Source of the DNA: Branchiibius sp. NY16-3462-2
GTDB lineage: Bacteria; Actinomycetota; Actinomycetes; Actinomycetales; Dermatophilaceae
DNA length: 64,000 nucleotides
Assembly: GCF_001594145.1 (NCBI RefSeq)
Contig: NZ_LVCF01000042.1
Coordinates: forward strand, 21,836 to 85,835
Direction: 5' to 3'
The notes below the pieces were generated by a model that saw only the letters and a list, made by a program, of their open reading frames with translations, did not search any database and was not told where the DNA came from. Below, one piece after another: positions 1 through 28,956 of the stretch; position 1 is the first letter of the stretch, and every line of letters begins with the position of its first letter. Both the position numbers and the translations under genes were made by a program.

Positions 1-225
1 GTTCACGAGCTCGCTAAGGAAGCGGCGCGTCGCACTGGCCGCACGCAGACCAGTGCCATTGAAGTCGCGCTGGAAGAGTTCCTCGCCCGAACTGACGCTG
101 AGCAATCGGCCGAAGCCCGTCGGCAGCGGGCCAGTGAACTCATCGCCGAACTTCAGTCAATGTGTGCCGGTAAGGACTTGTCGACAGATTTCTTGTATGA
201 CGACGAGACCGGTCTGCCGGCGTGA
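1..225 (+). CDS. Type II antitoxin (VapB-like), 5' end outside the window
   Basis: Open frame runs from base 1 to TGA at 223-225 (...ALEEFLARTDAE...DETGLPA). It overlaps the GTG start of the downstream PIN-domain gene by 4 nt (GTGA), the classic antitoxin-toxin layout. Confidence 0.6.
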   Translation, partial: VHELAKEAARRTGRTQTSAIEVALEEFLARTDAEQSAEARRQRASELIAELQSMCAGKDLSTDFLYDDETGLPA

Positions 226-617
226 TCATCGATACCTCGGCGCTCGTTGCAGTACTTAAGGCCGAGGCTGGCTGGGAGCGGATCGTTGCAACTGCGGAGG
301 CGGCGCCGAGTCTACTGATCTCCGCAGCTACTTACGTCGAGTTCGGCATCGTCGTTGATCGGCGAGGTGGCCCTGCGGGCACGCGGCGGGCCGATAACCT
401 GCTCCGCTCGTGGCAGGTTGAAGTGACAGATGTGACGGTTCGGCAGGCCAATATCGCCCGCGCTGCCTATCGAGACTTCGGCAAGGGCACGGGACATCCG
501 GCCCAACTCAACTTCGGAGACTGCTTCGCCTACGCGCTGGCCGTCGAGCGTGACGAGCCGCTGCTTTTCGTAGGCGACGACTTCATCCACACCGACGTGC
601 GAACAGTTCCGGCCTGA
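222..617 (+). CDS. vapC: PIN-domain ribonuclease toxin VapC
   Basis: 131-aa ORF of typical VapC size. Conserved acidic PIN positions are visible: N-terminal IIDTSALVA, TYVEFG, FGDCFAYALA, LLFVGDDF. Coupled to the upstream small ORF. Confidence 0.85.
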   Translation: MIIDTSALVAVLKAEAGWERIVATAEAAPSLLISAATYVEFGIVVDRRGGPAGTRRADNLLRSWQVEVTDVTVRQANIARAAYRDFGKGTGHPAQLNFGDCFAYALAVERDEPLLFVGDDFIHTDVRTVPA

Positions 618-1049
618 GTCGCGCAGGAAGCCAACCCGCACGGGCGTACTAGTGGCCGAGGGCTGTCGGAGCTTTAATGCGAGATCCTGCGATTTTCCTG
701 GTGGGCATACCCGTTCGGCCATTGTTGATCAGCGTGCGGCGGAACTCCGAACCGTTGAGGGTGAATGCGGGTAGCTTCGGTCTAACCGAGTTGCTGGTGG
801 GCAGGGGAGCACTCCTGCGCGATCCGATCTCGGTACTCGATCGGAAGGAAGATGACCATGGAGAGTTTTGGTCATACAGGTGGGCACAGCTTGATTCCCG
901 ACGTCATCTTCTGGCCAGTGTTCATATTGATTTTTGTATTTTGCGTTGCATCCTACTTAGTGCGCAAGAAAAGGCAGAAATAGGACTGGCGATTCGGGCT
1001 GAGCGCAGTAACACCACCGTGGGCCGCCCGATGGCGCCTTAGTCGGTTC

Positions 1050-2348
1050 TCAGAGTTTGGGCAGCGGGGGGAGCGGCAACTCGCACAGCCACGGCTCCAC
1101 GATCCGGCCGACCGGGTGACCCGTGAACGTCTGGGCAAACTCCACGAACTCCTGCGTGGTGGCGTTGCTGCCCTTGTGCCGATCGATCCACCCGGCTAGC
1201 AGCGCGAAGAACGACTCATCACCGATCGCCGCCCGGATCGCGTGCACCGTGAGCGCGCCGCGCTTGTAGACCCAGTCATCGAAGACGTGCTCCGCGCCCG
1301 GAGCGGCCAGCAGATGGCGAGGAGTCTTGTCGGACAACTGTTTCCAGTGCACCTCGGCCTCGTCCTGCGTCGACCTGCGCCCGCACTCCTGCGACCACAA
1401 CCACTCGCTGTAGCACGCAAAGCCCTCGTGCAACCAGATGTCCTGCAACCGTGCCAACGTGACCGCGTTGCCGAACCACTGGTGGGCCAACTCGTGAGCG
1501 ATCAACCGCTGGCTGTCCCACCGGCGGTCCAGCAGGTTCGAGCCGAAGATTGACAACGACTGCGCCTCGAGGGGGATTTCCAGCGAATCGTCAGTGACGA
1601 CAATGCGATACGACGGGAAGGGGTAGGGCCCGAAGCAGCGGGTGAACAACTGCATCATCGCGGTCTGGTCCGCGAACGCTCGATCAAAGCGCGTACGCAG
1701 CGAAGGCGGCACCACGGCGTACGTCCGGGTCGGTCCGCCGGTCACCTCATGCTCGACGTACCGGCCGATCTGCACGGTGGCCAGGTAGGGCGCCATCGGC
1801 TCGGTCTGCACGTAACTCCACGTGGTCTTCGAGCCGTGCCGGCGCACGGCGGTGCGGGAGCCGTTGGCGACCACAAAGTACGCCGAGTTGCAGGTGACGC
1901 TGATGCGATACGGGGCCTTGTTGCTGGCCCGGTCGTTGCACGGGAACCAGCTCGGCGCGCCGCCGGGCTGCCCGGCGACCAGGACGCCGTCGTCGAGTTC
2001 CTCCCAGCCGGCCTCACCGACCTTGTCGCGCACCACCTTGGGCACACCGCGGTAGGTGATGGTGACCGTGACCCGGTCATCGATCCGCAGCGGCGAGGCC
2101 AGGCGCAGCCGCAACCGGTTGCCGTCGTGGCGGTGCCGTTCGAGTTTGACCCCGGTGATCTTGACGACCTTCAGCGCGTGCAGATCGAGGGTGAGGTCGC
2201 GCAGGTTGTCCTGCAGCGCGCGGATCGTCAGCGTGGCGCGACCGGAGAGATGGTTGTTCTCGATCGCGTAGTCGAGGTCCAGGTCGTAGCCCGTGACGGC
2301 GTACGTCGTATCTCCGTGACCGGGCAGATAGGGGTCAGCCGAAGGCAT
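1050..2348 (-). CDS. M1-family zinc metallopeptidase (aminopeptidase-N fold), candidate polymer-degrading enzyme
   Basis: Gluzincin signature HELAHQWFGNAVTLARLQDIWLHEG (HEXXH-X18-E). Start chosen at MPSADPYLPGHG (ATG 2348-2346), which overlaps the upstream TGA by 1 nt. The longer ORF up to 2570 is an Arg/Pro-rich artefact lying inside the upstream gene. Confidence 0.85.
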   Translation of the reverse strand: MPSADPYLPGHGDTTYAVTGYDLDLDYAIENNHLSGRATLTIRALQDNLRDLTLDLHALKVVKITGVKLERHRHDGNRLRLRLASPLRIDDRVTVTITYRGVPKVVRDKVGEAGWEELDDGVLVAGQPGGAPSWFPCNDRASNKAPYRISVTCNSAYFVVANGSRTAVRRHGSKTTWSYVQTEPMAPYLATVQIGRYVEHEVTGGPTRTYAVVPPSLRTRFDRAFADQTAMMQLFTRCFGPYPFPSYRIVVTDDSLEIPLEAQSLSIFGSNLLDRRWDSQRLIAHELAHQWFGNAVTLARLQDIWLHEGFACYSEWLWSQECGRRSTQDEAEVHWKQLSDKTPRHLLAAPGAEHVFDDWVYKRGALTVHAIRAAIGDESFFALLAGWIDRHKGSNATTQEFVEFAQTFTGHPVGRIVEPWLCELPLPPLPKL

Positions 2349-5300
2349 CAGTCCTCCGCCCAGGGGCCGATCGGGTTGCCGACCCACCGGGTTTTGTCCG
2401 GGACGGATTCCCCACGCATGACCAATGACACCGGACCGACCGTAGCGTGCCGGCCGAGTCGCGCGGCGGGCAGGATCACCCCGTGGGGCCCGAGCGTGGC
2501 GCCCTCGGCGAGTTCGACAGTGTCCAGTGACAGCACCCGATCGTGGAAGAGATGGGTCTGTACGACGCACCCGCGGCCCACGCTCGCGCCGGCTCCCAGC
2601 CGGATCAGATCCGTCTCCGGCAACCAGTAGGTCTCACACCACACGCCCCGCCCGATCCGCGAACCCATCGCGCGCAACCACAGGTTCAGCACCGGCGTGC
2701 CGGCGACCGAGCGGGCCAGCCAGGGCGCCGCCAACATCTCCACGAACGTGTCGGCTAACTCGTTGCGCCACACGAACGAACTCCACAGCGGGTGCTCGCC
2801 CGCGCGCACCCGACCGATGAGCGCCCATTTGGCCAGTACGGCGAGTGCGGCCGCAACCAGTCCGCCCACCATGAGCAGCGGGCCGAGCAGGATGATCGCC
2901 CACGCCCAGCCGAGGTGCTGCTGGATCGCCCACGCGCCCAGTGCGACTCCAGCGGCGAGGGCGAACGCCAGCAGCCACGGCACGATGCGGCAGACCTCGA
3001 CCAGGGAGCGGGCCACCTTCAGGCGCGTCGCGGGCGCGTAGGTGCGCGAGGAGTCGGCCTCGTCGGCGTGCCGGCGCAGCTGCATGGGCGGACTGCCGAT
3101 CCACGAGGTGCCCGACGAGGCGTGCTCCTTGCGGCCGGGGGCGGCCGAGAGTACGGCGACCAGCCCCTCCTTGGGCACCTTGCGTCCCGGGGCGGTCATC
3201 CCCGAGTTCCCCACGAAGGCCCGCTTGCCGACCCGCGACTTCTCGGTGCGCAACCAGCCGCCGCCGAGTTCATAGGGGCCGATGAGGGTGTCGTCGGCGA
3301 GGAACGCGCGCTCGCGGACGGTCACGAGCTTCGGGATCATCAGCACGGTGGACGCTTCGACCTCGTCACCGATCTTCGCGCCCAGCGACCGCAACCAGGA
3401 GGGGGTGAGCGCGCTGGAGTAGATCGGGAAGAGCCAGCCGCGGGCCTCATCCATCGTGCGCAGCGTGCCCCAGGCCGCGAGGGCGTGCCAGGAGTGCACC
3501 GGATGATGACCGGCCGCGACGCCGGTGCCCAGGAAGCGGACCAGCAACCAGATGAGCAGCGCAAGCACGACGATGCCGGTGAGGCCGCCGGCCACCAATG
3601 CCGGGACCGCCATCGCGGCTAGCGAGCGATCACCGACCACAGCCACTGCGACGGCAAGACCTGCCACAGTGGCTACGACGGGCAGGAGGCTGATCGCGAT
3701 GGCCAGGACGCCGTACGCGACGGACCACCAGGGGCGGTGCGGCGGGTGCTCATCGGACCACGAGCCGCGGGCTTTGCCGACGCGGCGGGCGGGTGCACCG
3801 CTCCACGCCTGATCGGCGGGCACGGTTCCGAAAACGCCTGAGCCCGGAGCGATCTCGCTGCGTCGGCCGATGTCACAACCGGGCACGAGCATCGAGCGGG
3901 TCCCGATCCGAGCGTCGCGGCGGACGGTGACCTGGCCGATGTGGATGCGGTCGCCGTCCATCCAATGACCGGACAGGTCGACCTCCGGCTCGATCGACGC
4001 GCCACGACCGACGTGCAGCATCCCGGTCACCGGCGGGATCGAGTGCAGGTCGGCGTCGCGGCCAATGCGAGCGCCCAAAGCCCTTGCGTACCAGAGCATC
4101 CACGGCGCACCCGAGAGTTTCGTGGCGCCGGTCTCGTCGGCGATCCGCTCGGCCAGCCACAACCGCATGTGGACCTTGCCGCCGCGCGGGTAGTTGCCGG
4201 GCTTCACGCCGAACAGCACGATCCGGATCAGTCCGACCGCGATCGCCATGCGGCCGATCGGAGTGAGGAAGAGTGCCCACATCACCAGGACGAGCCACCC
4301 GGAGGGTTTGGGTACGTCGATCGGCACGTGACCGGCGGCCAGCCAGCAGCCGAGGAGCAGCCAGGCGGCCCAGCGCAGACCGGCCAGCCAGCGGGTTCCG
4401 AAGAGGGCGAGTTGCTGTCCGATCTGTGACTTCAGCGGGGTCGGTCGCACCGGTTTGCTGCGCAACTGGGCGCTGGCGGTCATCGAATCCAGCCGGGTGG
4501 CAAGGGATTCGACAGTGGGGTAGTCATAGACGTCGGCGACCGTGATCTCCGGGTAGGTCTCTCGCAGTCGGGACACGATCTGTGCTGCCGACAGCGATCC
4601 GCCGCCGAGATCGAAGAAGTCGTCGCTGGCGGAGCCGACCACGGCGCCGAGGACTTCGAGCCACTGGTCGGCGACCTGCTGCTGCGAAGGAGTGAGTTCA
4701 GCGGTGCCGTCGGACTCCGCGCGCAGGGTTGCGACCGGCCAGGGCAACGCGTCCCGGTCGATCTTGCCGGAGGTGCGTGTGGGCAATGTGTCGACCTGCG
4801 CGAGGCGCGGCACCATGGTCGCGGGCAGTTCGGCGCGCAACCGGGACATCGCGGCCGATAGGTCGAAATCGCTGGCCAGCGTGATGTATCCGACGAGGAT
4901 CTTTGCGCCGGCGTCGGTCTGTCGAACGGCAGCGGCGCCGCCGGCCACCCCCGGCAGTGCGGTGAGGGCGGCGTCGACCTCGCCGAGTTCAATCCGACGA
5001 CCGCCGAGTTTGATCTGGTCGTCAGCGCGACCAGCGAAGAGCAGCCCGGCCTCGTCCTTGATGACGACGTCGCCCGAGCGGTAGGCGCGGTCCCACCCCA
5101 GAGTCGGCATCGCGGCGTACTTCTCGGCGTCCTTGGCCGGATCCAGATAGCGGGCCAGGCCGACGCCACCGATGATCAGCTCACCCGATTCGCCGTCAGC
5201 GACCGGATTGCCCTCACCATCAACGACTTCCAGGTCCCAACCGTCGAGGGGCAGGCCGATGCGGACCGGTCCTTCGGCGGTCAGCTGCGCGGCGCAGGCG

Positions 5301-6181
5301 ACGACGGTGGCCTCGGTCGGGCCGTAGGTGTTCCAGATCTCCCGGGTCGCGGTGGCGTAGCGGGCGCCGAGTTCGGGTGGGCACGCCTCGCCACCGAGGA
5401 TCAGCAGCCGGACCTTGTCGAGGGCCCGCGCGGGCCACAAGGCCAGCAGCGTCGGGACCGTGGACACGATGGTGATGTCATTGGCGACCAGCCAGGGGCC
5501 GAGATCCATGCCGCTACGGACCAAGGAGCGGGGCGCTGGGACCAGGCAGGCGCCGTACCGCCAGGCCAGCCACATCTCCTCGCAACTCGCGTCGAACGCG
5601 ACCGACAACCCGGCCATCACCCGGTCGTCGGTGCCGATCGGGTGACCCTGCAGGAAGAGGCGGGACTCGGCGTCGACGAAGGCGGCGGCGTTGCGGTGCG
5701 AGACGGCGACACCCTTGGGCAGACCCGTCGAGCCCGAGGTGAAGATGACCCAGGCGTCGTCCTCGACGGCGGGGGCGAGCACCTCGGGTCGGGGTGCGGC
5801 GGTGCGCAGGACGGTGAGGGCGAGGTCCTCGGTCAGCGTGGCCGCGACTCCTGCTTCGCCGAAGACGGTGACGGCCCGCTCGTCCGGATCGTCGGCGTCG
5901 ACCGGGACGTACGCCGCGCCAGCCAGCAGAGTGCCGATGATCGCGATGTAGAGATCGGTGGTGCCGGAGTTGATCCGGATGCCGATCCGGTCGCCGGGTC
6001 CGATGCCGGCCTGCGCGAGCTGTTCGGCCAGCGCGGAGGCGGTCTCGAGGAGTTCGGCGTAGGTGAGGACCGTGTTGCCGCTGTCGATCGCGGGGGAGTC
6101 GGGGCACTCGGCGGCGGTCTCGGTGAAGATGTCGACCAGCGTCCGCGGCGGTGGGGCCAGATCCCCCCGGCGAAGGGTCAC
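2348..6181 (-). CDS. Pls/PosA-family single-module non-ribosomal peptide synthetase (A-T-[2TM+C1]-[2TM+C2]-[2TM+C3])
   Basis: 1277 aa. Adenylation core motifs: LTYAEL, FTSGSTGLPKGV, NTYGPTE, GELIIGGVGLARYL, YRSGD, GRADDQIKLGGRRIELGEV. Carrier motif FFDLGGGSLSAAQI. No condensation or thioesterase domain. The C-terminal ~650 aa is three repeats of two hydrophobic helices followed by a soluble hexapeptide-repeat-like domain. AGGAGG lies 5 nt upstream of the GTG start at 6181. Confidence 0.9.
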   Translation of the reverse strand: MTLRRGDLAPPPRTLVDIFTETAAECPDSPAIDSGNTVLTYAELLETASALAEQLAQAGIGPGDRIGIRINSGTTDLYIAIIGTLLAGAAYVPVDADDPDERAVTVFGEAGVAATLTEDLALTVLRTAAPRPEVLAPAVEDDAWVIFTSGSTGLPKGVAVSHRNAAAFVDAESRLFLQGHPIGTDDRVMAGLSVAFDASCEEMWLAWRYGACLVPAPRSLVRSGMDLGPWLVANDITIVSTVPTLLALWPARALDKVRLLILGGEACPPELGARYATATREIWNTYGPTEATVVACAAQLTAEGPVRIGLPLDGWDLEVVDGEGNPVADGESGELIIGGVGLARYLDPAKDAEKYAAMPTLGWDRAYRSGDVVIKDEAGLLFAGRADDQIKLGGRRIELGEVDAALTALPGVAGGAAAVRQTDAGAKILVGYITLASDFDLSAAMSRLRAELPATMVPRLAQVDTLPTRTSGKIDRDALPWPVATLRAESDGTAELTPSQQQVADQWLEVLGAVVGSASDDFFDLGGGSLSAAQIVSRLRETYPEITVADVYDYPTVESLATRLDSMTASAQLRSKPVRPTPLKSQIGQQLALFGTRWLAGLRWAAWLLLGCWLAAGHVPIDVPKPSGWLVLVMWALFLTPIGRMAIAVGLIRIVLFGVKPGNYPRGGKVHMRLWLAERIADETGATKLSGAPWMLWYARALGARIGRDADLHSIPPVTGMLHVGRGASIEPEVDLSGHWMDGDRIHIGQVTVRRDARIGTRSMLVPGCDIGRRSEIAPGSGVFGTVPADQAWSGAPARRVGKARGSWSDEHPPHRPWWSVAYGVLAIAISLLPVVATVAGLAVAVAVVGDRSLAAMAVPALVAGGLTGIVVLALLIWLLVRFLGTGVAAGHHPVHSWHALAAWGTLRTMDEARGWLFPIYSSALTPSWLRSLGAKIGDEVEASTVLMIPKLVTVRERAFLADDTLIGPYELGGGWLRTEKSRVGKRAFVGNSGMTAPGRKVPKEGLVAVLSAAPGRKEHASSGTSWIGSPPMQLRRHADEADSSRTYAPATRLKVARSLVEVCRIVPWLLAFALAAGVALGAWAIQQHLGWAWAIILLGPLLMVGGLVAAALAVLAKWALIGRVRAGEHPLWSSFVWRNELADTFVEMLAAPWLARSVAGTPVLNLWLRAMGSRIGRGVWCETYWLPETDLIRLGAGASVGRGCVVQTHLFHDRVLSLDTVELAEGATLGPHGVILPAARLGRHATVGPVSLVMRGESVPDKTRWVGNPIGPWAED

Positions 6182-6286
6182 GCGATCCTCCTGGCGTCGT
6201 ACGGCGGCAGCGGGCTCAGTCTTTCACCGCTAGCGCCGCCGACGCGGCAGGGTCCGCAAAGCGGGCAGTCTTGGCGGGTTTCACCG

Positions 6287-6351
6287 CGACGATTCTGGAG
6301 CGATCAACGTTCTGCAGGGAGTTTCCGCAGCAAACGGCTCCAGAATCGTCG
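6287..6351. repeat. Perfect 15-bp inverted repeat (CGACGATTCTGGAGC / GCTCCAGAATCGTCG) with a 35-nt spacer, in the spacer upstream of the NRPS gene
   Basis: Read directly: arms at 6287-6301 and 6337-6351. It lies between the stop of the orphan gene (6377) and the NRPS start (6181). Either a terminator for the upstream gene or a regulatory stem/operator for the NRPS. Confidence 0.55.
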
Positions 6352-6376
6352 ATCGCTCCAAAATCAGTGGGACAAG

Positions 6377-7567
6377 TCAGCCGTCAAGAGGAAGTCGCGG
6401 CGGTTGGTCGAGCCCAGCCCGCTCGCGCACGCGGGCTAGGAGCTCAGTGACATCGCGGTGCGCCTGGTCGACACCCTCCGCACCGTCGAGCATTGACGCG
6501 GTGGAGCGCTGAATGATCGCGGTGATGTGATGTGCGTAGCGCCGGACTGTGTAGGACTGCCGCAACGGCGGGCCGAAGCCGCCGTCCCACGTGCCGGTGA
6601 TCTCCAGCAACCGGACCGGCGAGTTGCGCCACCAGTCCGCCCAGGCCGGGTCAACCTGGACATGACAAAGCAACTGGTCCAGGGTCTGCTCGTACTCCCG
6701 CGGCATGCCATTGGTTAAGCCGTGACCGCAGAAGCGGATCTCGTGCGGCTGCTCCGGCGCTGAGCGACCGACGCCCATGACGGATAAACCCAGACCGGAG
6801 CTAACGACAGGCTTTGCTGGAGCGGTGGGTTCCGGTGGCCACACGACGTCGGGCTCGGTCGCTGTCAGCTGCGATAGAGACCAGCGCGACGTCGCAGCTT
6901 GTGTGCCGAACAGGCCTACCCACGGCACCGCCTCGACGCTCTCGGCACCTGCCCATCGCAACGTCCGAGCTGAGCGTTGGAAGCCTTCGATCGTGCTGAA
7001 GCTGGGGACTGCCTCCGAACGGAGGACCTGGGCTGTCTTGACGTCGGTCACCTCGAGGATGGCGATGCCGAAACCGTTGTCCTGCAGGCTGAACCGAAGG
7101 CGCGCCTTGTGCTTCCGGGTCCGCGATGTCTTCCAGGGACTATCCCAAGAGAACTCGAAGCGGTGAGCGATCACTGCGGCGTGCGCCTCGTTCAGCCGCT
7201 CGGGATCCCAACCTCGCGCCTGGCCGAGGCGCATCATGCCGCCGTGCACAGTTTCCAGGACTAGTGCTGCGCGATAGCCCGCGTCCAACGTGGTCGCTGC
7301 CGGTGGCAGCGTCACCCTGCCGGACTCGCTGTCGCTCGGATCGACCGACATGGCCACCTCGACATCGCCGGGTTCGCCCTGCCCGACGAAGAACCGCACA
7401 CTGCTCGACCGGTTCGACAACTCGGCCTTTCGCAGAGCGTCGCTATAGCGCTCGCACACCCGTCGCGAGGTTCGTACGAAAGCGTCGCAGTTCGGTTCAT
7501 CAGGATCCCAGGGCTCCGCCTCTGGTCCGGCCAGCGGCCAGAAGTGCACATCTCGCAGGAGCCCCAT
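6377..7567 (-). CDS. Hypothetical protein (no recognisable motifs)
   Basis: Long ORF with GC-rich third codon positions. Start chosen at MGLLRDVHFWPL (ATG 7567-7565), 14 nt downstream of the permease stop. The upstream extension to 7714 is Arg-rich and overlaps the permease gene. No TM segments or known motifs seen. Confidence 0.6.
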   Translation of the reverse strand: MGLLRDVHFWPLAGPEAEPWDPDEPNCDAFVRTSRRVCERYSDALRKAELSNRSSSVRFFVGQGEPGDVEVAMSVDPSDSESGRVTLPPAATTLDAGYRAALVLETVHGGMMRLGQARGWDPERLNEAHAAVIAHRFEFSWDSPWKTSRTRKHKARLRFSLQDNGFGIAILEVTDVKTAQVLRSEAVPSFSTIEGFQRSARTLRWAGAESVEAVPWVGLFGTQAATSRWSLSQLTATEPDVVWPPEPTAPAKPVVSSGLGLSVMGVGRSAPEQPHEIRFCGHGLTNGMPREYEQTLDQLLCHVQVDPAWADWWRNSPVRLLEITGTWDGGFGPPLRQSYTVRRYAHHITAIIQRSTASMLDGAEGVDQAHRDVTELLARVRERAGLDQPPRLPLDG

Positions 7568-7581
7568 GGACGCCAAGATAG

Positions 7582-8973
7582 TCAGCCGTCGATGCGGAGG
7601 GCTGCGACGACGGGAACGCTCGTTGCGCGGCGGGCTGGGGGCAGTGCGGACACCAGGACCAGCGCGACACCGACCGCGGCAACGGTGCCGAGGAATGCCC
7701 AGGGCGTGCCCCACACGAAGCCGTTGGTCTGGAAGCCGATGACCGACTGTGCTCCGATCGAGCCGAAGATCACCCCCAGGATCAGTCCGAAGAGGACCGC
7801 GGTCCCGGCGAGGGCCGCTGATTCGCGGGTGATCATCGAGCGGATCTGGGTGCCGGTGAAACCGACGGCTCGCAGCAGACCGATCTCCCGGCGCCTCTGG
7901 ATCACCGTGAGGGACATCGTCGAGATGAATCCGATCACCGAGATGACGCAGGACACCACCACGATGCCCGTCATCACGGCACCGATCGCACTGAGCAACT
8001 GATGGGCTAGCTCCCGGTCGGCGGGTGTGAGTTGGGTCCAGCCGTCGACGGCCTGCTGCAGAGCGCCCATCCCGGACGCGATGGTGGTGACGATTGCCAC
8101 ACCGATGACCAGACCCATCGTGGAGCGGGTGGTGCGCTGCGGGTCGAGGACCGCGTTACGACGGGCGATGCGGCTGGCGGGAGTTTCGCCCAGCGCTCGT
8201 CCGGCGGCGCTGACCAGCCCGGGCACGACGTACCGCGCACCGATCAGCAAGCCGGTCGCGAAGGTGGCGGCGCCGAGGAAGGCGAGCAGGAAGCCGTAGC
8301 CCGCGTAGTGCTCGCCGGTCCAGGCGGCGCCGAGCAGGAAGACAACGCCGGCGGCCATCGTGAGTACGGCGAAGGCCTTGCGCAGCCGGGACTCGCGGCG
8401 GGTCGCCGCCGAAGGGGCGGATACTCCGGTCATCGCTTCAGCCGGTGTCACGGTCAGGACGCGGCGGGACCCGAGCCAGCCACACACCAGCGCCACGATC
8501 GCGATGATGAGGACCGGGACGATCAGGAAGCTGCTGGTCAGCGGATAGTCGTGCGACGGGAGCGTGCCGCGTGCCACCAACACGACCCGCGCGACGGCGG
8601 TGATGGCGACCCCGAGGGCCGCTCCCCCGAGGGCAGCCAGCAGGCCGATCAGGCCGGTGGATCGCATCACCACCTTGCGCAGGTCGGCTGAGCGGGCGCC
8701 GAGCAATCGCAGCAGCGCCAACTGCCGCAACCGTCCGGCCAGGACCGTGTCGACCGCGTTGGTGATGACGACCGCTGCCACGTAGATCGCGACGAGGTTG
8801 AACACCAACGAGGCGATCTGCAGGGTGAAGCCGAGCCTGCCCGGGTCGTTGCCGAGGGTCGCCAATACCGCACTGGCAGAGACCAATACACCGGCGTACA
8901 GGCCGCAGAGGGCAGCGACCAATCCGATCGTGCCGAGGTCGCGACCGGAGCCAAGGACGAGTTCCCTATTCAC
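7582..8973 (-). CDS. ABC transporter permease with duplicated FtsX domains
   Basis: About 10 hydrophobic segments. Two FtsX-type loops: LLRLLGARSADLRKVVM and IGLLRAVGFTGTQIRSMI. GTG start at 8973-8971 overlaps the ATPase stop by 4 nt (GTGA). Confidence 0.85.
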   Translation of the reverse strand: MNRELVLGSGRDLGTIGLVAALCGLYAGVLVSASAVLATLGNDPGRLGFTLQIASLVFNLVAIYVAAVVITNAVDTVLAGRLRQLALLRLLGARSADLRKVVMRSTGLIGLLAALGGAALGVAITAVARVVLVARGTLPSHDYPLTSSFLIVPVLIIAIVALVCGWLGSRRVLTVTPAEAMTGVSAPSAATRRESRLRKAFAVLTMAAGVVFLLGAAWTGEHYAGYGFLLAFLGAATFATGLLIGARYVVPGLVSAAGRALGETPASRIARRNAVLDPQRTTRSTMGLVIGVAIVTTIASGMGALQQAVDGWTQLTPADRELAHQLLSAIGAVMTGIVVVSCVISVIGFISTMSLTVIQRRREIGLLRAVGFTGTQIRSMITRESAALAGTAVLFGLILGVIFGSIGAQSVIGFQTNGFVWGTPWAFLGTVAAVGVALVLVSALPPARRATSVPVVAALRIDG

Positions 8974-9725
8974 GCTGCACCAACCTCCAGGTTCACCATC
9001 AGCCGGGCGATCTCCGTTGCGGGCATCGCCGGGTAGTCGCCCGCGATCCGCCCGTCGGCGACGACAAGGATGCGATCGGCGTACGACGCGGCGACCGGAT
9101 CGTGGGTGACCATCAGGATCGTCTGGTGATGCTCCTGGGCGGCAGCACGCAACAGCGCCAATACTTCTCGGGAGGTGCGGGTGTCCAGGTTGCCGGTGGG
9201 TTCGTCGGCGATGACCAGGTGGGGGCGTACGGCGAGTGCCCGGGCGATCGCGACGCGCTGCTGCTGACCGCCGGACAACTCCGCGGGACGGTGGGTGATG
9301 CGCTCCTTGAGACCCAGCGTCTGCGTCAGGTAGTCGATGCGCTCGCGGTCCTGCTCGCTTGGCGTGCGCCCAGCCAGGTCGAAGGGCAGCAGGATGTTCT
9401 CGCGGACGGTCAGCGTCGGGACCAGGTTGAACGCCTGGAAGACGAAGCCGATGTGGTCGCGGCGCAGTTGGGTGCGCCGGTCGTCGGACAGTTCGTGGAA
9501 GGGCTGACCGGCCAGCCACACCTGGCCCTTGCTCGGATTGTCCAGTCCTGCAGCGATGTTCAGCAGCGTGGACTTGCCGGAGCCGGACGGACCCATGATG
9601 GCGGTGAACTGGCTGGGCGCGATGTCGAGGCTGATGTCGGTGAGGGCGGGGACGGCACTGGGTCCATCGCCGTACCAGCGATCGACGTTGCGCATCCACA
9701 GGACAGGGGGTAGTTGTTCGGTCAT
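8970..9725 (-). CDS. ABC transporter ATP-binding protein (MacB/LolD-like)
   Basis: Walker [11 protein letters not shown]-loop FVFQAFNL, signature [15 protein letters not shown], Walker [14 protein letters not shown]-loop MVTHD. Start at MTEQLPP (ATG 9725-9723). Confidence 0.9.
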
Positions 9726-9831
9726 ACCCACGACGTTAGGAAGCGGCGGCCTCATCGCGCGTCGGCCTGTGGGAGGGTTCTGCCTACATCGCAGGATGTA
9801 CATCAGCAGCTGATCGACGAAAGGGCGGTCC

Positions 9832-10206
9832 ATGGATGGGTTAGTTGATGACGATGACCCATACTTCTCTGGCGGCCCCCGCGGCGACGGTCAGCGGATG
9901 GGGCCGCTGCCCGACGGCAACTGGTACGTCGTTGCCGCTGTTCCACAACGTTTTCCCGGCTGGCTTATCGAGGCGGGTGAGGGACTGGCGGGAGTCCCAG
10001 CGGGGATCGTTGCAGGGATCACCTATGGAGTGGCAAATGAACCCCCGTACGAAGCAAGGGTCTACAGCTACCAACGCAAGCGGCAGATGCGAAAGAAGCT
10101 CGTGTTCGCAGAGCCCTTCCCGACGATGGCCGAGGCGCGGGCCAGAGCACTAGAAATGCGTGATTCGCTGAAGTCGGGACATGTTCCCGATCGCTCAACG
10201 AAGTAG
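9832..10206 (+). CDS. Hypothetical small protein (orphan)
   Basis: 124-aa ORF in a patch that looks less GC-rich than its surroundings, divergent from the ABC operon. No motifs recognised. A competing out-of-frame ORF exists, so coding status is uncertain. Confidence 0.35.
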   Translation: MDGLVDDDDPYFSGGPRGDGQRMGPLPDGNWYVVAAVPQRFPGWLIEAGEGLAGVPAGIVAGITYGVANEPPYEARVYSYQRKRQMRKKLVFAEPFPTMAEARARALEMRDSLKSGHVPDRSTK

Positions 10207-10216
10207 CTCGCCTCGC

Positions 10217-10864
10217 TCAAGTAGCCAATCCGTGCTCATACGCATAGACGACCAGTTGCACGCGATCGCGCGCACCCAGCTTGGTCAGGATGCGCGAGAT
10301 GTGCGTCTTCACCGTTGCCTCCGAAAGGAATTCGGCGGCGGCGATCTCCGCGTTCGACAGGCCCTTCGCGGCCTGCAGCAGGATCTCGCGCTCCCGGGCG
10401 GTGAGTGAGTCGTACTCCGGACCAGGGTGGGCGCTGCGCCCCCGGAAGCGGGCGAACAACGCGCGGGTGGCACCGGCAGCGACCACCTGATTGCCCGCCG
10501 CGACTGAGCGGATCGAGGCCAGCAACATCTCGGGTTCCGCTGATTTCAGGACGAACCCGCTGGCGCCGGCTTCGATCGCCGCCACCGCCGACTCGTCCTC
10601 GTCGAAGGTCGTCAGCACCAGAACCTTCGGGGCATCCGCACCCATCGACTCCTGCAGGGTCCGGGTCGCGGTCACCCCATCCACGCGCGGCATCCGCACG
10701 TCCATCACGATCACATCCGGTTGCGCACTGCGCACGAGCGATGGCACCTCGCTGCCGTCGCCCGCTTCGCCGACAACCGACAAGTCGTCCTGCGAGGAAA
10801 TCACCATGGCGATGCCGGCCCGAAAGAGCGCCTGATCGTCCACCAGGGCAACGCGGATCGTCAC
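10217..10864 (-). CDS. Two-component response regulator, NarL/FixJ (LuxR) family
   Basis: Receiver motifs ALVDDQ, DVIVMDVRMP, KVLVLTTF. C-terminal LuxR HTH: LTAREREIL...GLSNAEIA...TVKTHISRIL. GTG start overlaps the kinase stop (GTGA). Confidence 0.9.
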   Translation of the reverse strand: MTIRVALVDDQALFRAGIAMVISSQDDLSVVGEAGDGSEVPSLVRSAQPDVIVMDVRMPRVDGVTATRTLQESMGADAPKVLVLTTFDEDESAVAAIEAGASGFVLKSAEPEMLLASIRSVAAGNQVVAAGATRALFARFRGRSAHPGPEYDSLTAREREILLQAAKGLSNAEIAAAEFLSEATVKTHISRILTKLGARDRVQLVVYAYEHGLAT

Positions 10865-12036
10865 CACTTGTCCTCCGGGATGAAAACGTCCACCTGCCAA
10901 CGGGTTCCGGCGTCGGCAGGTTCCGCACGCATCATGCCGCCCGCAGCAATCACCCGCTCCTGCATCCCCCGCAGGCCATGCCCACCGGTACCGACCGGCC
11001 GGGCCCCCGCAGCATTGGTCACGCTCAACCGGTACCCGTCGCTCCAGTCTTCGCGCACCCGCACCGGAGTGCGCAGATCGCCGTGTTTGAGCGCGTTGGT
11101 CAACGACTCGGTCAGGACCCGGCTGGCAGTGGCCGTGAGCTGGGGGTCCGCACTCGGCGTACCTTCCTGGGTCACCTCCAGGCTCACTCCCGCGTCGCGC
11201 AGGCGCTGGATCAGCGCGGCCGGCTGGTCCAGCGTCAGCGGCGCATCGGAGTCATCGTCCCGCAACCGGCTGAGCAGGCCACGGATGTCGGTCATGGCGG
11301 AGCGGGCGGTCTCCCCGATCACCGACAGCGCTTCCTCCGCGCGGTCCGGATCGGTGCGCAACAGATAGCGGGCGCCATCGGCCTGAGCGGCCACGACGGC
11401 CCACGAGTGGGCAACGACGTCGTGCATGTCCGAGGCGATCGCGATGCGCTGCTGCTGCTGGGTGACCAGGTCGCGCAGCCGGCGTTCCTCCGCACTCTGC
11501 AACTCCAGGCCCACCCGCTCGCGGATCACCTCGCGGCGCTGGTAGCGCAGGTAGCCGGTCACCCACCCGCCGAAGACGACCAGCGCGGTCAGGCCACCCA
11601 TGATCGCGCCCGCGATCAACCGGTGGGTCAGGTCGGTGGCGACCGCCGGCTCAGCGCCGCCCTGGATGGTGATCCACCCGGCCGCCACCAGGACCGCGAT
11701 AGTGCAGGCGATCAGGCCGAATCGACGTACGGCGCGATCCCGGTGCGCGCCCAGGCGAAAGGCGATCAGGGCGTAGCCCAGGTCGGCGACGTAGTTGATG
11801 TCGCCGTCGACCACCTGCCAGATGGCGGCGACGATCGCCAGGGCCACGCTGGCCGCAAGCCAGCGGCGACGGATCGCGAGGGCGACACCGAGCAGGATCG
11901 CCGCGGGCCAGGAGTGCAGTTCGTTGAGCGCGGTGATCGCGATCGGGACCAGGCCGATGAGGATGTCGATGATCCAGCCGCGCCGGGTGAGCGGCTGGTC
12001 CTCTCCCCACGGATCGAGCTGGGCGGTCCCGGTCAT
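10861..12036 (-). CDS. Sensor histidine kinase, HisKA_3 type
   Basis: N-terminal hydrophobic helices, phospho-acceptor box DMHDVVAHSW, N-box LTESLTNALKH, G-box GHGLRGMQERV. Start at MTGTAQLDPW (ATG 12036-12034), 4 nt after the CDF gene stop. Confidence 0.85.
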   Translation of the reverse strand: MTGTAQLDPWGEDQPLTRRGWIIDILIGLVPIAITALNELHSWPAAILLGVALAIRRRWLAASVALAIVAAIWQVVDGDINYVADLGYALIAFRLGAHRDRAVRRFGLIACTIAVLVAAGWITIQGGAEPAVATDLTHRLIAGAIMGGLTALVVFGGWVTGYLRYQRREVIRERVGLELQSAEERRLRDLVTQQQQRIAIASDMHDVVAHSWAVVAAQADGARYLLRTDPDRAEEALSVIGETARSAMTDIRGLLSRLRDDDSDAPLTLDQPAALIQRLRDAGVSLEVTQEGTPSADPQLTATASRVLTESLTNALKHGDLRTPVRVREDWSDGYRLSVTNAAGARPVGTGGHGLRGMQERVIAAGGMMRAEPADAGTRWQVDVFIPEDKW

Positions 12037-12040
12037 CTCG

Positions 12041-13012
12041 CTAGTGCGCGTGGGCGGACGACTCGTGGGAGGCGTGGCTGACCGGTTCGAGTTGGAAGGT
12101 GGAGTGCTCGACGTCAAAGTGGCCAGCGATGCAGGCCTGCAATTCATCCAGCAGCCGTGCGGAGTGCCCATCGGTGAAGCACTCGTCCTCCACGACGACA
12201 TGCGCGGAGAGGGCCGGCAGGCTCGAGGTAACCGTCCAGACGTGCAGGTCGTGGACGCTGACCACGTGCTCCGGCTCCAGCAGATGAGCGGTGACGTCGC
12301 GCAGGTCGACCTCGCTGGGCGCGGCCTCCATCAGCACCCGGCCGCTATCGCGGGTGAGCGCCCAACCGGCGCGCAACATCAGGGCGACGACCACCAGGGA
12401 GGCGACGGCGTCGGCCCGCATCCACCCGGTGAGCAGGATGATCAGGGCTGCGATCGCCGTACCGATGAAGCCATAAAGATCAGTCAGGACGTGCTGGTAG
12501 GCGCCTTCGACGTTCAGGCTGCTGCGATTGGCGCGGGCCATGGCGGCGGCGGCCGCGATGTTGACGACCATGCCGATCAGCGCCACCACCAACACCAGCC
12601 CACCGGTCACTTCCGGCGGGTCGATCAGCCGGCGGATCGCCTCGATCCCGAGGACCGCGGCAAGCACGAGCAGCGTGATGCCGTTGCCAGCGGCTGACAG
12701 GATCTCGGCGCGTTTCCAGCCGAACGTCCACTTGCCGCGGGCCGGTTGGGCGGCCAGGTGCATCGCCCACAGCGCCGCCCCGATGGCAGCCACGTCGGAG
12801 AGCATGTGAGCCGCGTCCGAAAGCAGGGCGAGCGATCCGGAAATGAACGCCGTGATGACCTCGCCGACCATAAAGGTGGCCAGAAGGCCGAGGGCGATCC
12901 ACAGGTAGCGGCGGTCGGCGTCGGCGGAGATGGCGTGCGAGTGTCCGTCGTGGCTGTGCGCGTCAGCGGTTTCGGCCGCGCCGTGGGGGTCGGCGCCGGA
13001 GCACAGGCTCAT
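12041..13012 (-). CDS. Cation diffusion facilitator family metal efflux transporter (CzcD/ZitB-like)
   Basis: His-rich N-terminus (AHSHDGHSH) and C-terminus (HASHESSAHAH). TM2 site LLSDAAHMLSD and TM5 site HVLTDLYGF (HxxxD pairs). Start at MSLCSG (ATG 13012-13010). Confidence 0.85.
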   Translation of the reverse strand: MSLCSGADPHGAAETADAHSHDGHSHAISADADRRYLWIALGLLATFMVGEVITAFISGSLALLSDAAHMLSDVAAIGAALWAMHLAAQPARGKWTFGWKRAEILSAAGNGITLLVLAAVLGIEAIRRLIDPPEVTGGLVLVVALIGMVVNIAAAAAMARANRSSLNVEGAYQHVLTDLYGFIGTAIAALIILLTGWMRADAVASLVVVALMLRAGWALTRDSGRVLMEAAPSEVDLRDVTAHLLEPEHVVSVHDLHVWTVTSSLPALSAHVVVEDECFTDGHSARLLDELQACIAGHFDVEHSTFQLEPVSHASHESSAHAH

Positions 13013-27303: not shown

Positions 27304-28956
27304 ATGGAAGGCGCTCGCCCCGTCCGCGCACCGCGCGGCACCACCCTCACCGCGCAGTCGTGGCAGACCGAAGCCCCGATGCGGATGCTCATGAACAACC
27401 TCGATCCGGAGGTGGCCGAGCGGCCGGACGATCTGGTCGTCTACGGCGGCACCGGTCGTGCGGCCCGCGATTGGCGCTCGTTCGACGCGATCGTCCGCAC
27501 CCTCCAGGGCCTGAAGCAGGACGAGACGCTGCTGGTGCAGTCCGGGCGTCCGGTCGGTGTGATGCAGACGCACGAGTGGGCGCCACGGGTTTTGATCGCG
27601 AACTCGAATCTCGTTCCGGACTGGGCAAATTGGCCCGAGTTTCGCCGGCTGGAGCACCTCGGCCTGACGATGTACGGGCAGATGACTGCGGGGTCGTGGA
27701 TCTACATCGGCACTCAGGGCATCGTGCAGGGCACCTACGAGACGTTCGCCGCCGTCGCCGAGAAGCGTTTCGGCGGAACCCTCGCCGGCACGCTCACGCT
27801 GACGGGTGGCTGCGGCGGGATGGGCGGCGCGCAACCGCTGGCCGTCACCCTCAACGACGGTGCCTGCCTGATTGTGGACGTCGACGAGTCGCGGTTGCGG
27901 CGTCGTGTGAAGGACCGCTACCTCGATGAGGTTGCGGAGAACCTGGACGACGCGATCGAGAAGGCGGTTGCCGCGCGCACTCAGCGTCGGGCGTGGTCGG
28001 TGGGTGTGGTCGGTAATGCCGCGGAGATCTTCCCCGAGCTGCTGCGCCGCGGTGTGCCGATCGACATCGTGACCGACCAGACCAGCGCGCATGACCCGCT
28101 GTCCTACCTGCCCGAGGGCATCGACCTGGACGACTGGAGCGAGTACGCCGAGAAGAAGCCGGCCGAGTTCACCGACCGGGCGCGGGCGTCGATGGCCAAG
28201 CACGTGCAGGCGATGGTGGAGTTCCAGGACGGCGGTGCCGAGGTGTTCGACTACGGCAACTCGATCCGCGACGAAGCCCGACAGGGCGGATATGAGCGGG
28301 CGTTCGAGTTCCCGGGGTTCGTCCCGGCGTATATCCGGCCGCTGTTCTGCGAGGGCAAGGGCCCGTTTCGGTGGGCGGCGCTGTCGGGTGACCCGAAGGA
28401 CATCTACGCGACCGACAAGGCCGTCATGGACCTCTTCCCGGACAACGACCGCTTGCAGAAGTGGATGCGTGGGGCGAAGGAGAAGATCGCGTTCCAGGGT
28501 CTGCCGGCCCGGATCTGCTGGCTTGGTTACGGCGAGCGGGACAAGGCGGGTCTCGCGATCAACGATCTGGTTGCCCGCGGCGAGGTCAGCGCGCCCATCG
28601 TGATCGGCCGCGACCACCTGGACTGCGGTTCGGTCGCCTCGCCCTACCGGGAGACTGAGTCCATGCTCGACGGGTCGGACGCGATCTCCGACTGGCCGCT
28701 GCTGAACGCCATGGTTAACACCGCCTCCGGTGCGACCTGGGTGTCCATCCACCACGGCGGCGGCGTCGGCATCGGCCGGTCCCAGCACGCCGGTCAGGTG
28801 TCGGTCGCTGACGGCACCCCGCTGGCCGCGCAGAAGCTGGCGCGCGTGCTCACCAACGATCCCGGCATGGGTGTCATCCGGCACGTCGACGCCGGTTACG
28901 ACATCGCCGAGAACGTCGCTGCGGCCCAGGGCGTGCGCGTCCCGATGCGCGAATGA
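27304..28956 (+). CDS. hutU: Urocanate hydratase
   Basis: Highly conserved HutU blocks: [72 protein letters not shown]. Confidence 0.95.

Follow-up and report, generated by a model that had tools for sequence, protein, structure and literature searches.

Organization and conservation of the gene pair

Two adjoining genes were identified on the minus strand of the window, that is, the whole stretch of 64,000 nucleotides that was analysed. The pls-like gene (2348..6181, minus strand) starts with GTG, stops with TGA at 2348-2350 and encodes a 1277-aa single-module membrane NRPS with the layout A-T-[TM-TM-C]x3. The pldII-like gene (1050..2348, minus strand) encodes a 432-aa two-domain M1 zinc metallopeptidase, as assigned by the Pfam models Peptidase_M1_N and Peptidase_M1. 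An AGGAGG ribosome-binding site was read from the sequence 5 nt 5' of the pls-like GTG (6187..6192, minus strand), and this start was supported by the homologues, which begin at the equivalent residue. At the junction of the two genes, the pls stop codon and the peptidase ATG share one base in the sequence TGATG (2346..2350, minus strand, read from the sequence), and GGAGGA sits just 5' of this overlap.

The arrangement was compared among actinobacterial pls loci from 80 sampled species. The peptidase gene lay directly downstream of pls in 77 of the 80 loci, and two of the three others were contig ends, so that the genes were adjacent in 77 of 78 informative loci. Stop and start codons overlapped in 59 to 64 of the 77 loci (about 80%), by 4 nt in 45 and by 1 nt in 14. 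In Streptomyces, an M1 gene encoding 467 aa overlaps the end of pls (GTGA), and the pls-peptidase operon was near-universal across Nocardioides, Rhodococcus, Nocardia, Mycobacterium and others. The translational coupling of synthetase and M1 peptidase proposed in the preliminary description was thus borne out by the TGATG overlap and its conservation among the 77 loci. [quoted passage not shown]

Domain architecture of the synthetase

The adenylation domain of the synthetase covered residues 19-484 (4730..6127, minus strand), based on the Pfam AMP-binding match (residues 19-344, E 3e-61) and the match to PDB 7WEW. It was followed by a thiolation (carrier) domain at residues 501-564 (4490..4681, minus strand; Pfam PP-binding, E 1.7e-13), in which the phosphopantetheine serine is S529 within DLGGGS; G526, G527 and S529 were invariant in the homologue alignment. 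Further weak Pfam matches were obtained for AMP-binding_C and GMPPB_C, and the Condensation and Thioesterase models of Pfam had no match anywhere in the synthetase.

The remainder of the protein was made up of three repeats, each with two hydrophobic segments and one soluble domain, which were delimited by TIGR02353, hydropathy and self-BLAST. Repeat 1 (residues 590-815; 3737..4414, minus strand) contained TM1, TM2 and the soluble C1 domain, which resembles a hexapeptide or left-handed beta-helix fold and carried a Pfam Hexapep match at residues 751-784. Repeat 2 (residues 816-1055; 3017..3736, minus strand) contained TM3, TM4 and C2, and repeat 3 (residues 1056-1277; 2351..3016, minus strand) contained TM5, TM6 and C3. 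The three repeats were mutually homologous (E 5e-16, 6e-10 and 9e-8 in self-BLAST), and a second alignment additionally matched the repeat 3 region to the C1 region of Streptomyces Pls. The NCBIfam model of the Pls/PosA terminal domain, TIGR02353, reached 699.6 bits (cutoff 423.1) over residues 589-1271, and the alignment spanned profile positions 3-695 of 695. Six hydrophobic segments were located at about residues 599-621, 629-652, 822-846, 860-884, 1063-1085 and 1092-1117, assigned as TM helices by hydropathy rather than by a dedicated topology predictor; TM1, at 1.4, was weaker than the other five. A Pls/PosA-type architecture with one adenylation and one carrier domain, neither condensation nor thioesterase domain and six helices had been expected for this protein, and each of these features was recovered.

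Substrate specificity of the synthetase

The adenylation domain matched PDB 7WEW, the A domain of epsilon-poly-L-lysine synthase, with an E value of 1.2e-183 and 63% global identity, and its landmarks were FDASCEEMW, IVSTVPT, LILGGEA and WNTYGPTEATVVAC. From the alignment with 7WEW, the specificity code DAESIGTVVK was taken as D197, A198, E201, S240, I261, G263, T285, V293, V294 and K473, and these ten residues were invariant among 13 homologues. The code had been proposed earlier and the alignment returned the same ten letters, of lysine type. The accompanying statement that it lies one change from the textbook Lys code was right about the type and understated the match, since all experimentally confirmed Pls enzymes carry exactly this code. 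In the NRPSpredictor2 table of PMC8117764, DAESIGTVVK is given for BAG68864, CCE28893, BBU42014 and WP_110952033. The class calls that NRPSpredictor2 makes for this code conflict: one classifier gives 'hydrophobic-aliphatic', and the nearest code gives 'lys'.

Over the full length, the synthetase was 52% identical to the Streptomyces epsilon-poly-L-lysine synthase Pls P0241 (1285 aligned positions, residues 10-1271), so that the anticipated alignment to the C-terminal region of Pls also held. P0241, whose A domain is nearly identical to 7WEW, served as the Streptomyces reference and was retrieved by a chimeric full-length query of the protein database; a query with the 480-aa S. albulus A domain recovered only partial proteins, all below 840 aa, and missed Pls. 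These values lie above the homology limits published for Pls, which are 40% for identity and 80% for coverage. For comparison, the experimentally confirmed Pls of C. variabile is 51% identical to Streptomyces Pls, and synthetases for other polymers are only 31-33% identical to C. variabile Pls (PMC8117764).

The M1 peptidase and its predicted location

The M1 catalytic domain of the peptidase was assigned by Pfam to residues 229-420, and the protein ends directly after it, at 432. The helical C-terminal domain with which enzymes of the aminopeptidase N/LTA4H type close their active site was absent from the Pfam matches, and the NCBIfam aminopeptidase N models stayed far under their cutoff (98 vs 591). 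The best match among solved structures was PDB 6A8Z (E 5e-42, residues 5-431), a 474-aa protein deposited as 'putative zinc metalloprotease'. 6A8Z/6IFF, a two-domain M1 aminopeptidase of Deinococcus radiodurans that is not known to be linked to a polymer synthetase, is of the same short M1 type and likewise has no C-terminal helical domain. The peptidase was 41% identical (55% positives, 434 aa, E 3e-107) to the Streptomyces PldII orthologue, the comparison being with the protein encoded behind pls in one Streptomyces genome rather than with the deposited PldII entry of S. albulus NBRC 14147. The suggested analogy with pldII agreed with this identity and with the overlapping M1 gene behind Streptomyces pls.

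The zinc site, H285-E-L-A-H289 followed after 18 residues by E308 (1425..1496, minus strand), was placed by the orthologue alignment, in which H285, E286, H289 and E308 were invariant in all 77 orthologues, in line with the M1 gluzincin with HELAH-X18-E that had been described. The catalytic Tyr equivalent, Y361 (1266-1268, minus strand), was also invariant (77/77). At the GXMEN-equivalent site, the orthologue profile gave the degenerate motif I258-P-L-E261-A262 (1563..1577, minus strand), which keeps the Glu and loses the Gly and Asn; P259 and E261 were invariant in 77/77. This register came from an alignment of the 77-orthologue profile with fragments of PepN and LTA4H (iPlea vs GAMEN) and rests partly on the PepN fragment; the PDB alignments gave no reliable register around this region. 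By this register, the reading P-L-E-A-Q in the preliminary description was off by one. Its further suggestion that the degenerate motif hints at endo-type cleavage was not sustained: the Glu that binds the substrate N-terminus is retained and invariant, and the Streptomyces PldII orthologue itself reads A-P-V-E-N at this site, so the motif offers no argument for endo-cleavage.

As for the location of the peptidase, no hydrophobic N-terminus and no TM segment were found (maximum 19-aa hydropathy 1.14), and the in-frame extension upstream of its start was likewise hydrophilic. A hydrophobic N-terminus was absent from the peptidase here and from 77/77 non-Streptomyces orthologues, while the Tat-like N-terminal signal TRCSRRALIRGAALLP was present in all three Streptomyces PldII orthologues. 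Lacking a signal peptide, the peptidase is predicted to be cytoplasmic, and judging from its sequence it most likely acts there, unlike Streptomyces PldII.

Discussion

Taken on sequence evidence, the two genes are very probably an orthologue of the pls-pldII operon, which would make and cut epsilon-poly-L-lysine. By analogy with the family, the adenylation domain would activate L-lysine using ATP and load it as a thioester on the phosphopantetheine of the carrier domain (S529). The three tandem acetyltransferase-like domains, anchored in the membrane by six helices, may then allow repeated attack on the lysyl thioester by an epsilon-amino group, either that of free lysine or that of the growing chain, so that epsilon-poly-L-lysine would result without a condensation or thioesterase domain and its chain length would be determined by the synthetase itself. 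Polymer formation in vitro by Pls with ATP and lysine is on record in the literature. The two-domain M1 zinc peptidase, presumably produced from the same mRNA through translational coupling, would hydrolyse the polymer for self-protection or turnover.

Among the closest known systems, S. albulus Pls (BAG68864; 7WEW), to which P0241 is near-identical, shares with the synthetase the A-T-(TM-TM-C)x3 layout, the code DAESIGTVVK and a downstream overlapping M1 gene; it differs in the host, which is a Dermacoccaceae-like actinobacterium here, in the flanking genes and in length (1319 aa for Streptomyces Pls vs 1277 aa), and the product of the present enzyme is a predicted one. S. albulus PldII shares with the peptidase its place downstream of pls, the coupling, the M1_N and M1 domains only, the HEXXH-X18-E site and 41% identity, whereas the Streptomyces orthologues are 467 aa with the Tat-like signal and read APVEN, against 432 aa without the signal and IPLEA here. 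S. albulus PldII is reported as endo-type, and PMC9223678 gives conflicting statements on whether cleavage is endo or exo. The non-Streptomyces operon of C. variabile (Jiang et al. 2021, PMC8117764) also has a coupled peptidase, and its Pls shares the code of the synthetase here. The C. variabile enzyme was shown to make 26-35-mer epsilon-PL heterologously (PMC8117764); for the synthetase here, epsilon-PL is the predicted product.

Three observations weigh against the pls-pldII assignment. The missing Tat-like signal means that the site of action differs from that of the characterised PldII. In C. variabile, which has the same operon, epsilon-PL was undetectable natively and was obtained only when Pls was expressed from an S. 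albulus promoter in S. coelicolor (PMC8117764). [quoted passage not shown]

The first two of these observations lend some weight to a different role for the operon outside Streptomyces, namely a short or cell-associated polylysine whose level is controlled by the cytoplasmic M1 peptidase, instead of a secreted antibiotic. Such a polymer may serve as lysine or nitrogen storage, in envelope charge or in the stress response, or the peptidase may shield the cytoplasm from nascent polycation. The near-universal presence of the operon in the genera named above, unusual for a specialised antibiotic, points the same way. However, the C. variabile enzyme gives epsilon-PL of ordinary length in S. coelicolor (PMC8117764), and the lack of a signal peptide speaks to a predicted location; this role is regarded as possible but unlikely. 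If true, the widespread operon would represent an intracellular or cell-associated polylysine cycle and not a secreted antibiotic with an extracellular self-protection enzyme.

It is quite improbable that the synthetase makes another cationic homopolymer, such as poly-diaminopropionate, poly-diaminobutyrate, poly-ornithine, poly-beta-lysine or poly-arginine. In favour of such a product, TIGR02353 names the family 'Pls/PosA' only, specificity codes are predictions, and the class calls for this code are inconsistent. The other Pls/PosA synthetases (beta-PDAP, gamma-PLDAB, gamma-PDDAB and others) share the NRPS architecture and TIGR02353 with the synthetase here. Nevertheless, they have different specificity pockets, and a coupled peptidase gene, specific to pls, is missing from the other three (PMC8117764). 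The ten-residue code equals that of all confirmed Pls and is far from the codes of the other synthetases, and the 52% identity to Pls stands well above their 31-33% identity to C. variabile Pls. A general housekeeping role for the peptidase, as an aminopeptidase adjoining pls by chance, is very unlikely. The retained E261, zinc ligands and catalytic Tyr and the resemblance to 6A8Z would suit it, but the adjacency is kept phylum-wide, mostly with overlapping codons, and the Streptomyces orthologue is the characterised epsilon-PL-degrading enzyme.

With assignment to pls-pldII as the preferred reading, the locus is an ordinary copy of a well-known two-gene operon, and what is new is this predicted member. 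The operon has been published, as has its wide actinobacterial spread including Dermacoccus, of which a homologue was listed by Jiang et al. 2021 (PMC8117764). For the nearest genus, antiSMASH calls of "NAPAA / epsilon-PL" are likewise in print. The locus adds one predicted epsilon-poly-L-lysine producer, of modest value for the mining of food-grade or skin-associated producers, and the synthetase may offer a different polymer chain length. More useful is the comparative by-product, that in the sample of 80 species coupling of the pair held with few exceptions throughout the phylum and that the export signal occurs only in the Streptomyces peptidases. This raises the testable question of what purpose the polymer serves in the numerous actinobacteria for which no secretion of epsilon-PL is known.

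The genes upstream of the pair, an ABC transporter, an FtsX permease, a two-component system and a 396-aa protein, were considered as partners of pls and rejected as part of the system, because this module is absent from the other pls loci and from Flexivirga. Promoter and terminator consensus scans of 500-6700 and an Rfam search of 1-12500 returned nothing. The 195-nt leader between the stop of the upstream gene and the pls start had a folding energy of -97.8 kcal/mol (z = -7.2), and inverted repeats and folding located in it a long hairpin (6287..6365, minus strand) with repeats of 15 nt (100% complementary) and 19 nt (89%), which is probably the terminator of the upstream operon or a regulatory element.

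Two overlapping genes and a Pls-type synthetase

The two overlapping minus-strand genes were confirmed. The synthetase ORF (2348..6181, -) encoded 1277 aa from a GTG start, with AGGAGG lying five bases upstream, and its TGA stop overlapped the ATG of the 432-aa peptidase ORF, which ran down to 1050 (-), in the sequence TGATG (2346-2350). A public contig of identical sequence had been annotated independently with the same two genes. A longer in-frame peptidase form back to 2570 was rejected: the extension lies inside the synthetase gene and is arginine-rich and non-hydrophobic, which leaves the ATG as the credible start site.

The synthetase has the Pls/PosA-type architecture. Pfam detected AMP-binding (19-344, E 3e-61), PP-binding (501-564) and hexapeptide-repeat (751-784) matches, and neither a condensation nor a thioesterase domain. 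The NCBIfam equivalog-domain model TIGR02353, "Pls/PosA family non-ribosomal peptide synthetase", matched residues 589-1271 over approximately its whole profile with 699.6 bits (cutoff 423.1). Residues 590-815, 816-1055 and 1056-1277 were mutually homologous (E 5e-16, 6e-10 and 9e-8), and each repeat opened with two hydrophobic segments, giving peaks near 605, 631, 828, 863, 1063 and 1095. By hydropathy alone, these would be the six helices expected in the preliminary description, and the first was the weakest.

[quoted passage not shown] All ten Stachelhaus positions were equal in both (D197 A198 E201 S240 I261 G263 T285 V293 V294 K473), and the resulting code, DAESIGTVVK, was invariant among 13 homologues. 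The lysine-type code previously read from the sequence was thereby borne out: in the NRPSpredictor2 table supplied by Jiang et al. 2021 (PMC8117764), the identical code, with "lys" as its nearest code, is given for several Pls enzymes that have been confirmed by experiment, S. albulus Pls BAG68864 and the two fungal enzymes among them. Orthology to Pls extended from end to end, the C-terminal region included, with 52% identity over 1285 aligned positions to P0241 (NCBI "epsilon-poly-L-lysine synthase Pls [Streptomyces]", 1319 aa), which was retrieved by a chimeric query and whose A domain is nearly identical to 7WEW. [quoted passage not shown]

Conservation of the coupled gene pair

The pls locus scan, with one genome per species, yielded 80 loci from Nocardioides, Kribbella, Rhodococcus, Nocardia, Mycobacterium, Gordonia, Tsukamurella, Amycolatopsis, Kocuria, Brachybacterium, Microbacterium and other genera. 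In 77 loci, pls was followed by the M1 peptidase in the same orientation. Of the other three, two were contigs stopping at the synthetase gene, and Gordonia sp. B21 was the only complete locus where 6 kb around the pls orthologue contained no M1 peptidase. The peptidase start and synthetase stop overlapped by four bases in 45 of the 77 pairs, by one base in 14 and possibly by more in five further ones; the gap exceeded 400 bases in only five. In Streptomyces, the 1319-aa pls was followed through a GTGA overlap by a 467-aa M1 gene, whose product shared 41% identity with the window peptidase over 434 residues (E 3e-107). According to PMC8117764 and secondary sources, pldII adjoins pls, is translationally coupled to it and degrades epsilon-PL, the cleavage being variously given as endo-type. 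The coupling and the pldII analogy drawn in the preliminary description were thus well founded. One actinobacterial-type orthologue (64% identity) lay on a contig labelled as a MAG of the alphaproteobacterium Sphingomonas paucimobilis, which is probably a binning error.

Active site and predicted location of the peptidase

Only the M1 N-terminal and catalytic domains were found by Pfam, and the C-terminus lies right behind the latter. The nearest solved relative was 6A8Z/6IFF (474 aa, E 5e-42), deposited as a zinc metalloprotease, which we take to be the two-domain Deinococcus radiodurans M1 enzyme. The zinc and catalytic residues H285-E-L-A-H289, E308 and Y361 were present and invariant in the 77 orthologues.

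In canonical M1 enzymes, the glutamate of GXMEN binds the free N-terminus of the substrate. This motif had been placed on P-L-E-A-Q, but the profile of the 77 orthologues, aligned with a PepN fragment, paired I-P-L-E-A with G-A-M-E-N. E261 precedes the HEXXH histidine by 24 residues without a gap, the spacing found in LTA4 hydrolase, and P259, E261 and Q263 were invariant in the subfamily. The profile, the spacing and the invariance of E261 indicated that the N-terminus-binding glutamate is retained, while glycine and asparagine are lost. Streptomyces PldII itself reads A-P-V-E-N at this place, in contrast to I-P-L-E-A here. Because the glutamate is kept and PldII is itself divergent, the degenerate motif cannot be used as an argument for endo-cleavage, as had been suggested.

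All three Streptomyces PldII orthologues examined (L081 9957-11360; L086 6951-8354; L087 6948-8351) started with (M/V)TRCSRRAL(I/L)RGAALLP(F/L)AAT, a Tat-like signal (TRCSRRALIRGAALLP). By its sequence this N-terminus is of twin-arginine type, which fits the reported location of PldII outside the membrane. In contrast, the window peptidase began with MPSADPYLPGHG, straight at the conserved core, and was free of hydrophobic stretches along its whole length (maximum 19-residue hydropathy 1.14). A hydrophobic N-terminus was likewise absent from all 77 non-Streptomyces orthologues, so these enzymes and the window peptidase are predicted to be cytoplasmic. The contrast is a real difference, and it was the only aspect of the locus for which no discussion was found in the literature searched.

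Proposed working and relation to known systems

Architecture, orthology, specificity code and coupling are established by the comparisons above. By analogy with Pls, whose mechanism is established and was reportedly described by Yamanaka et al. 2008, we infer the product, its length, and the substrate and mode of action of the peptidase. The A domain would adenylate L-lysine and load the carrier domain; the three membrane-anchored tandem domains would catalyse successive rounds of attack, with free lysine or the untethered growing chain contributing the epsilon-amine, and chain length would be determined by the synthetase itself. The polymer would then be hydrolysed by the coupled peptidase.

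The nearest named relatives of the synthetase (Luteipulveratus, Flexivirga, Rudaeicoccus and Yimella; 72-75% identity) are mostly annotated "Pls/PosA family" already. In Flexivirga meconopsidis, antiSMASH has been reported to call a NAPAA cluster that is 100% similar to the epsilon-poly-L-lysine one, and NAPAA clusters were called in three Dermacoccus species; a Dermacoccus homologue is also listed in PMC8117764. Given these annotations and calls and the published pls operons, the pair is an uncharacterised addition to the known pls-pldII-type operons. The overall interpretation as a Pls-type synthetase with a coupled peptidase was right.

Flanking genes and other features

Upstream in pls orientation lay a HisKA_3 kinase, a GerE-type response regulator, an ABC ATPase (8970-9755, -) and an FtsX permease (7582-8973, -), together spanning 7582-12201 (-) and resembling an antimicrobial-peptide sensing and efflux module. 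Between the permease and pls, a 396-aa soluble protein (6377-7567, -) had no Pfam family match, and its only homologue in the fetched loci was on the identical public contig. The upstream genes were rejected as part of the pls system, as none accompanies pls in other loci or Flexivirga. The 195-nt pls leader (6182-6376, -) folded at -97.8 kcal/mol (z = -7.2) and had no Rfam match. Its long near-perfect hairpin (arms 6287-6309 / 6337-6365, -), directly after the stop of the upstream gene, probably serves as an operator or as a terminator that lacks a U-tail. It is most simply read as the terminator of the upstream operon, in which case pls would have its own promoter. Downstream and convergent to the peptidase gene was a VapBC-type toxin-antitoxin pair (1-617, +), consisting of a PIN toxin (222-617, +) and a PSK_trans_fac antitoxin (+) that runs past the window's start.

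Elsewhere in the window, a 98-nt "tRNA-Val(TAC)" called by ARAGORN (27405-27502, +) matched no Rfam tRNA and reads as coding sequence, presumably urocanase-like; the tRNA call is almost certainly spurious. A TPP riboswitch (RF00059; 39802-39907, +) was detected with 59 bits, above the gathering score of 54.3.
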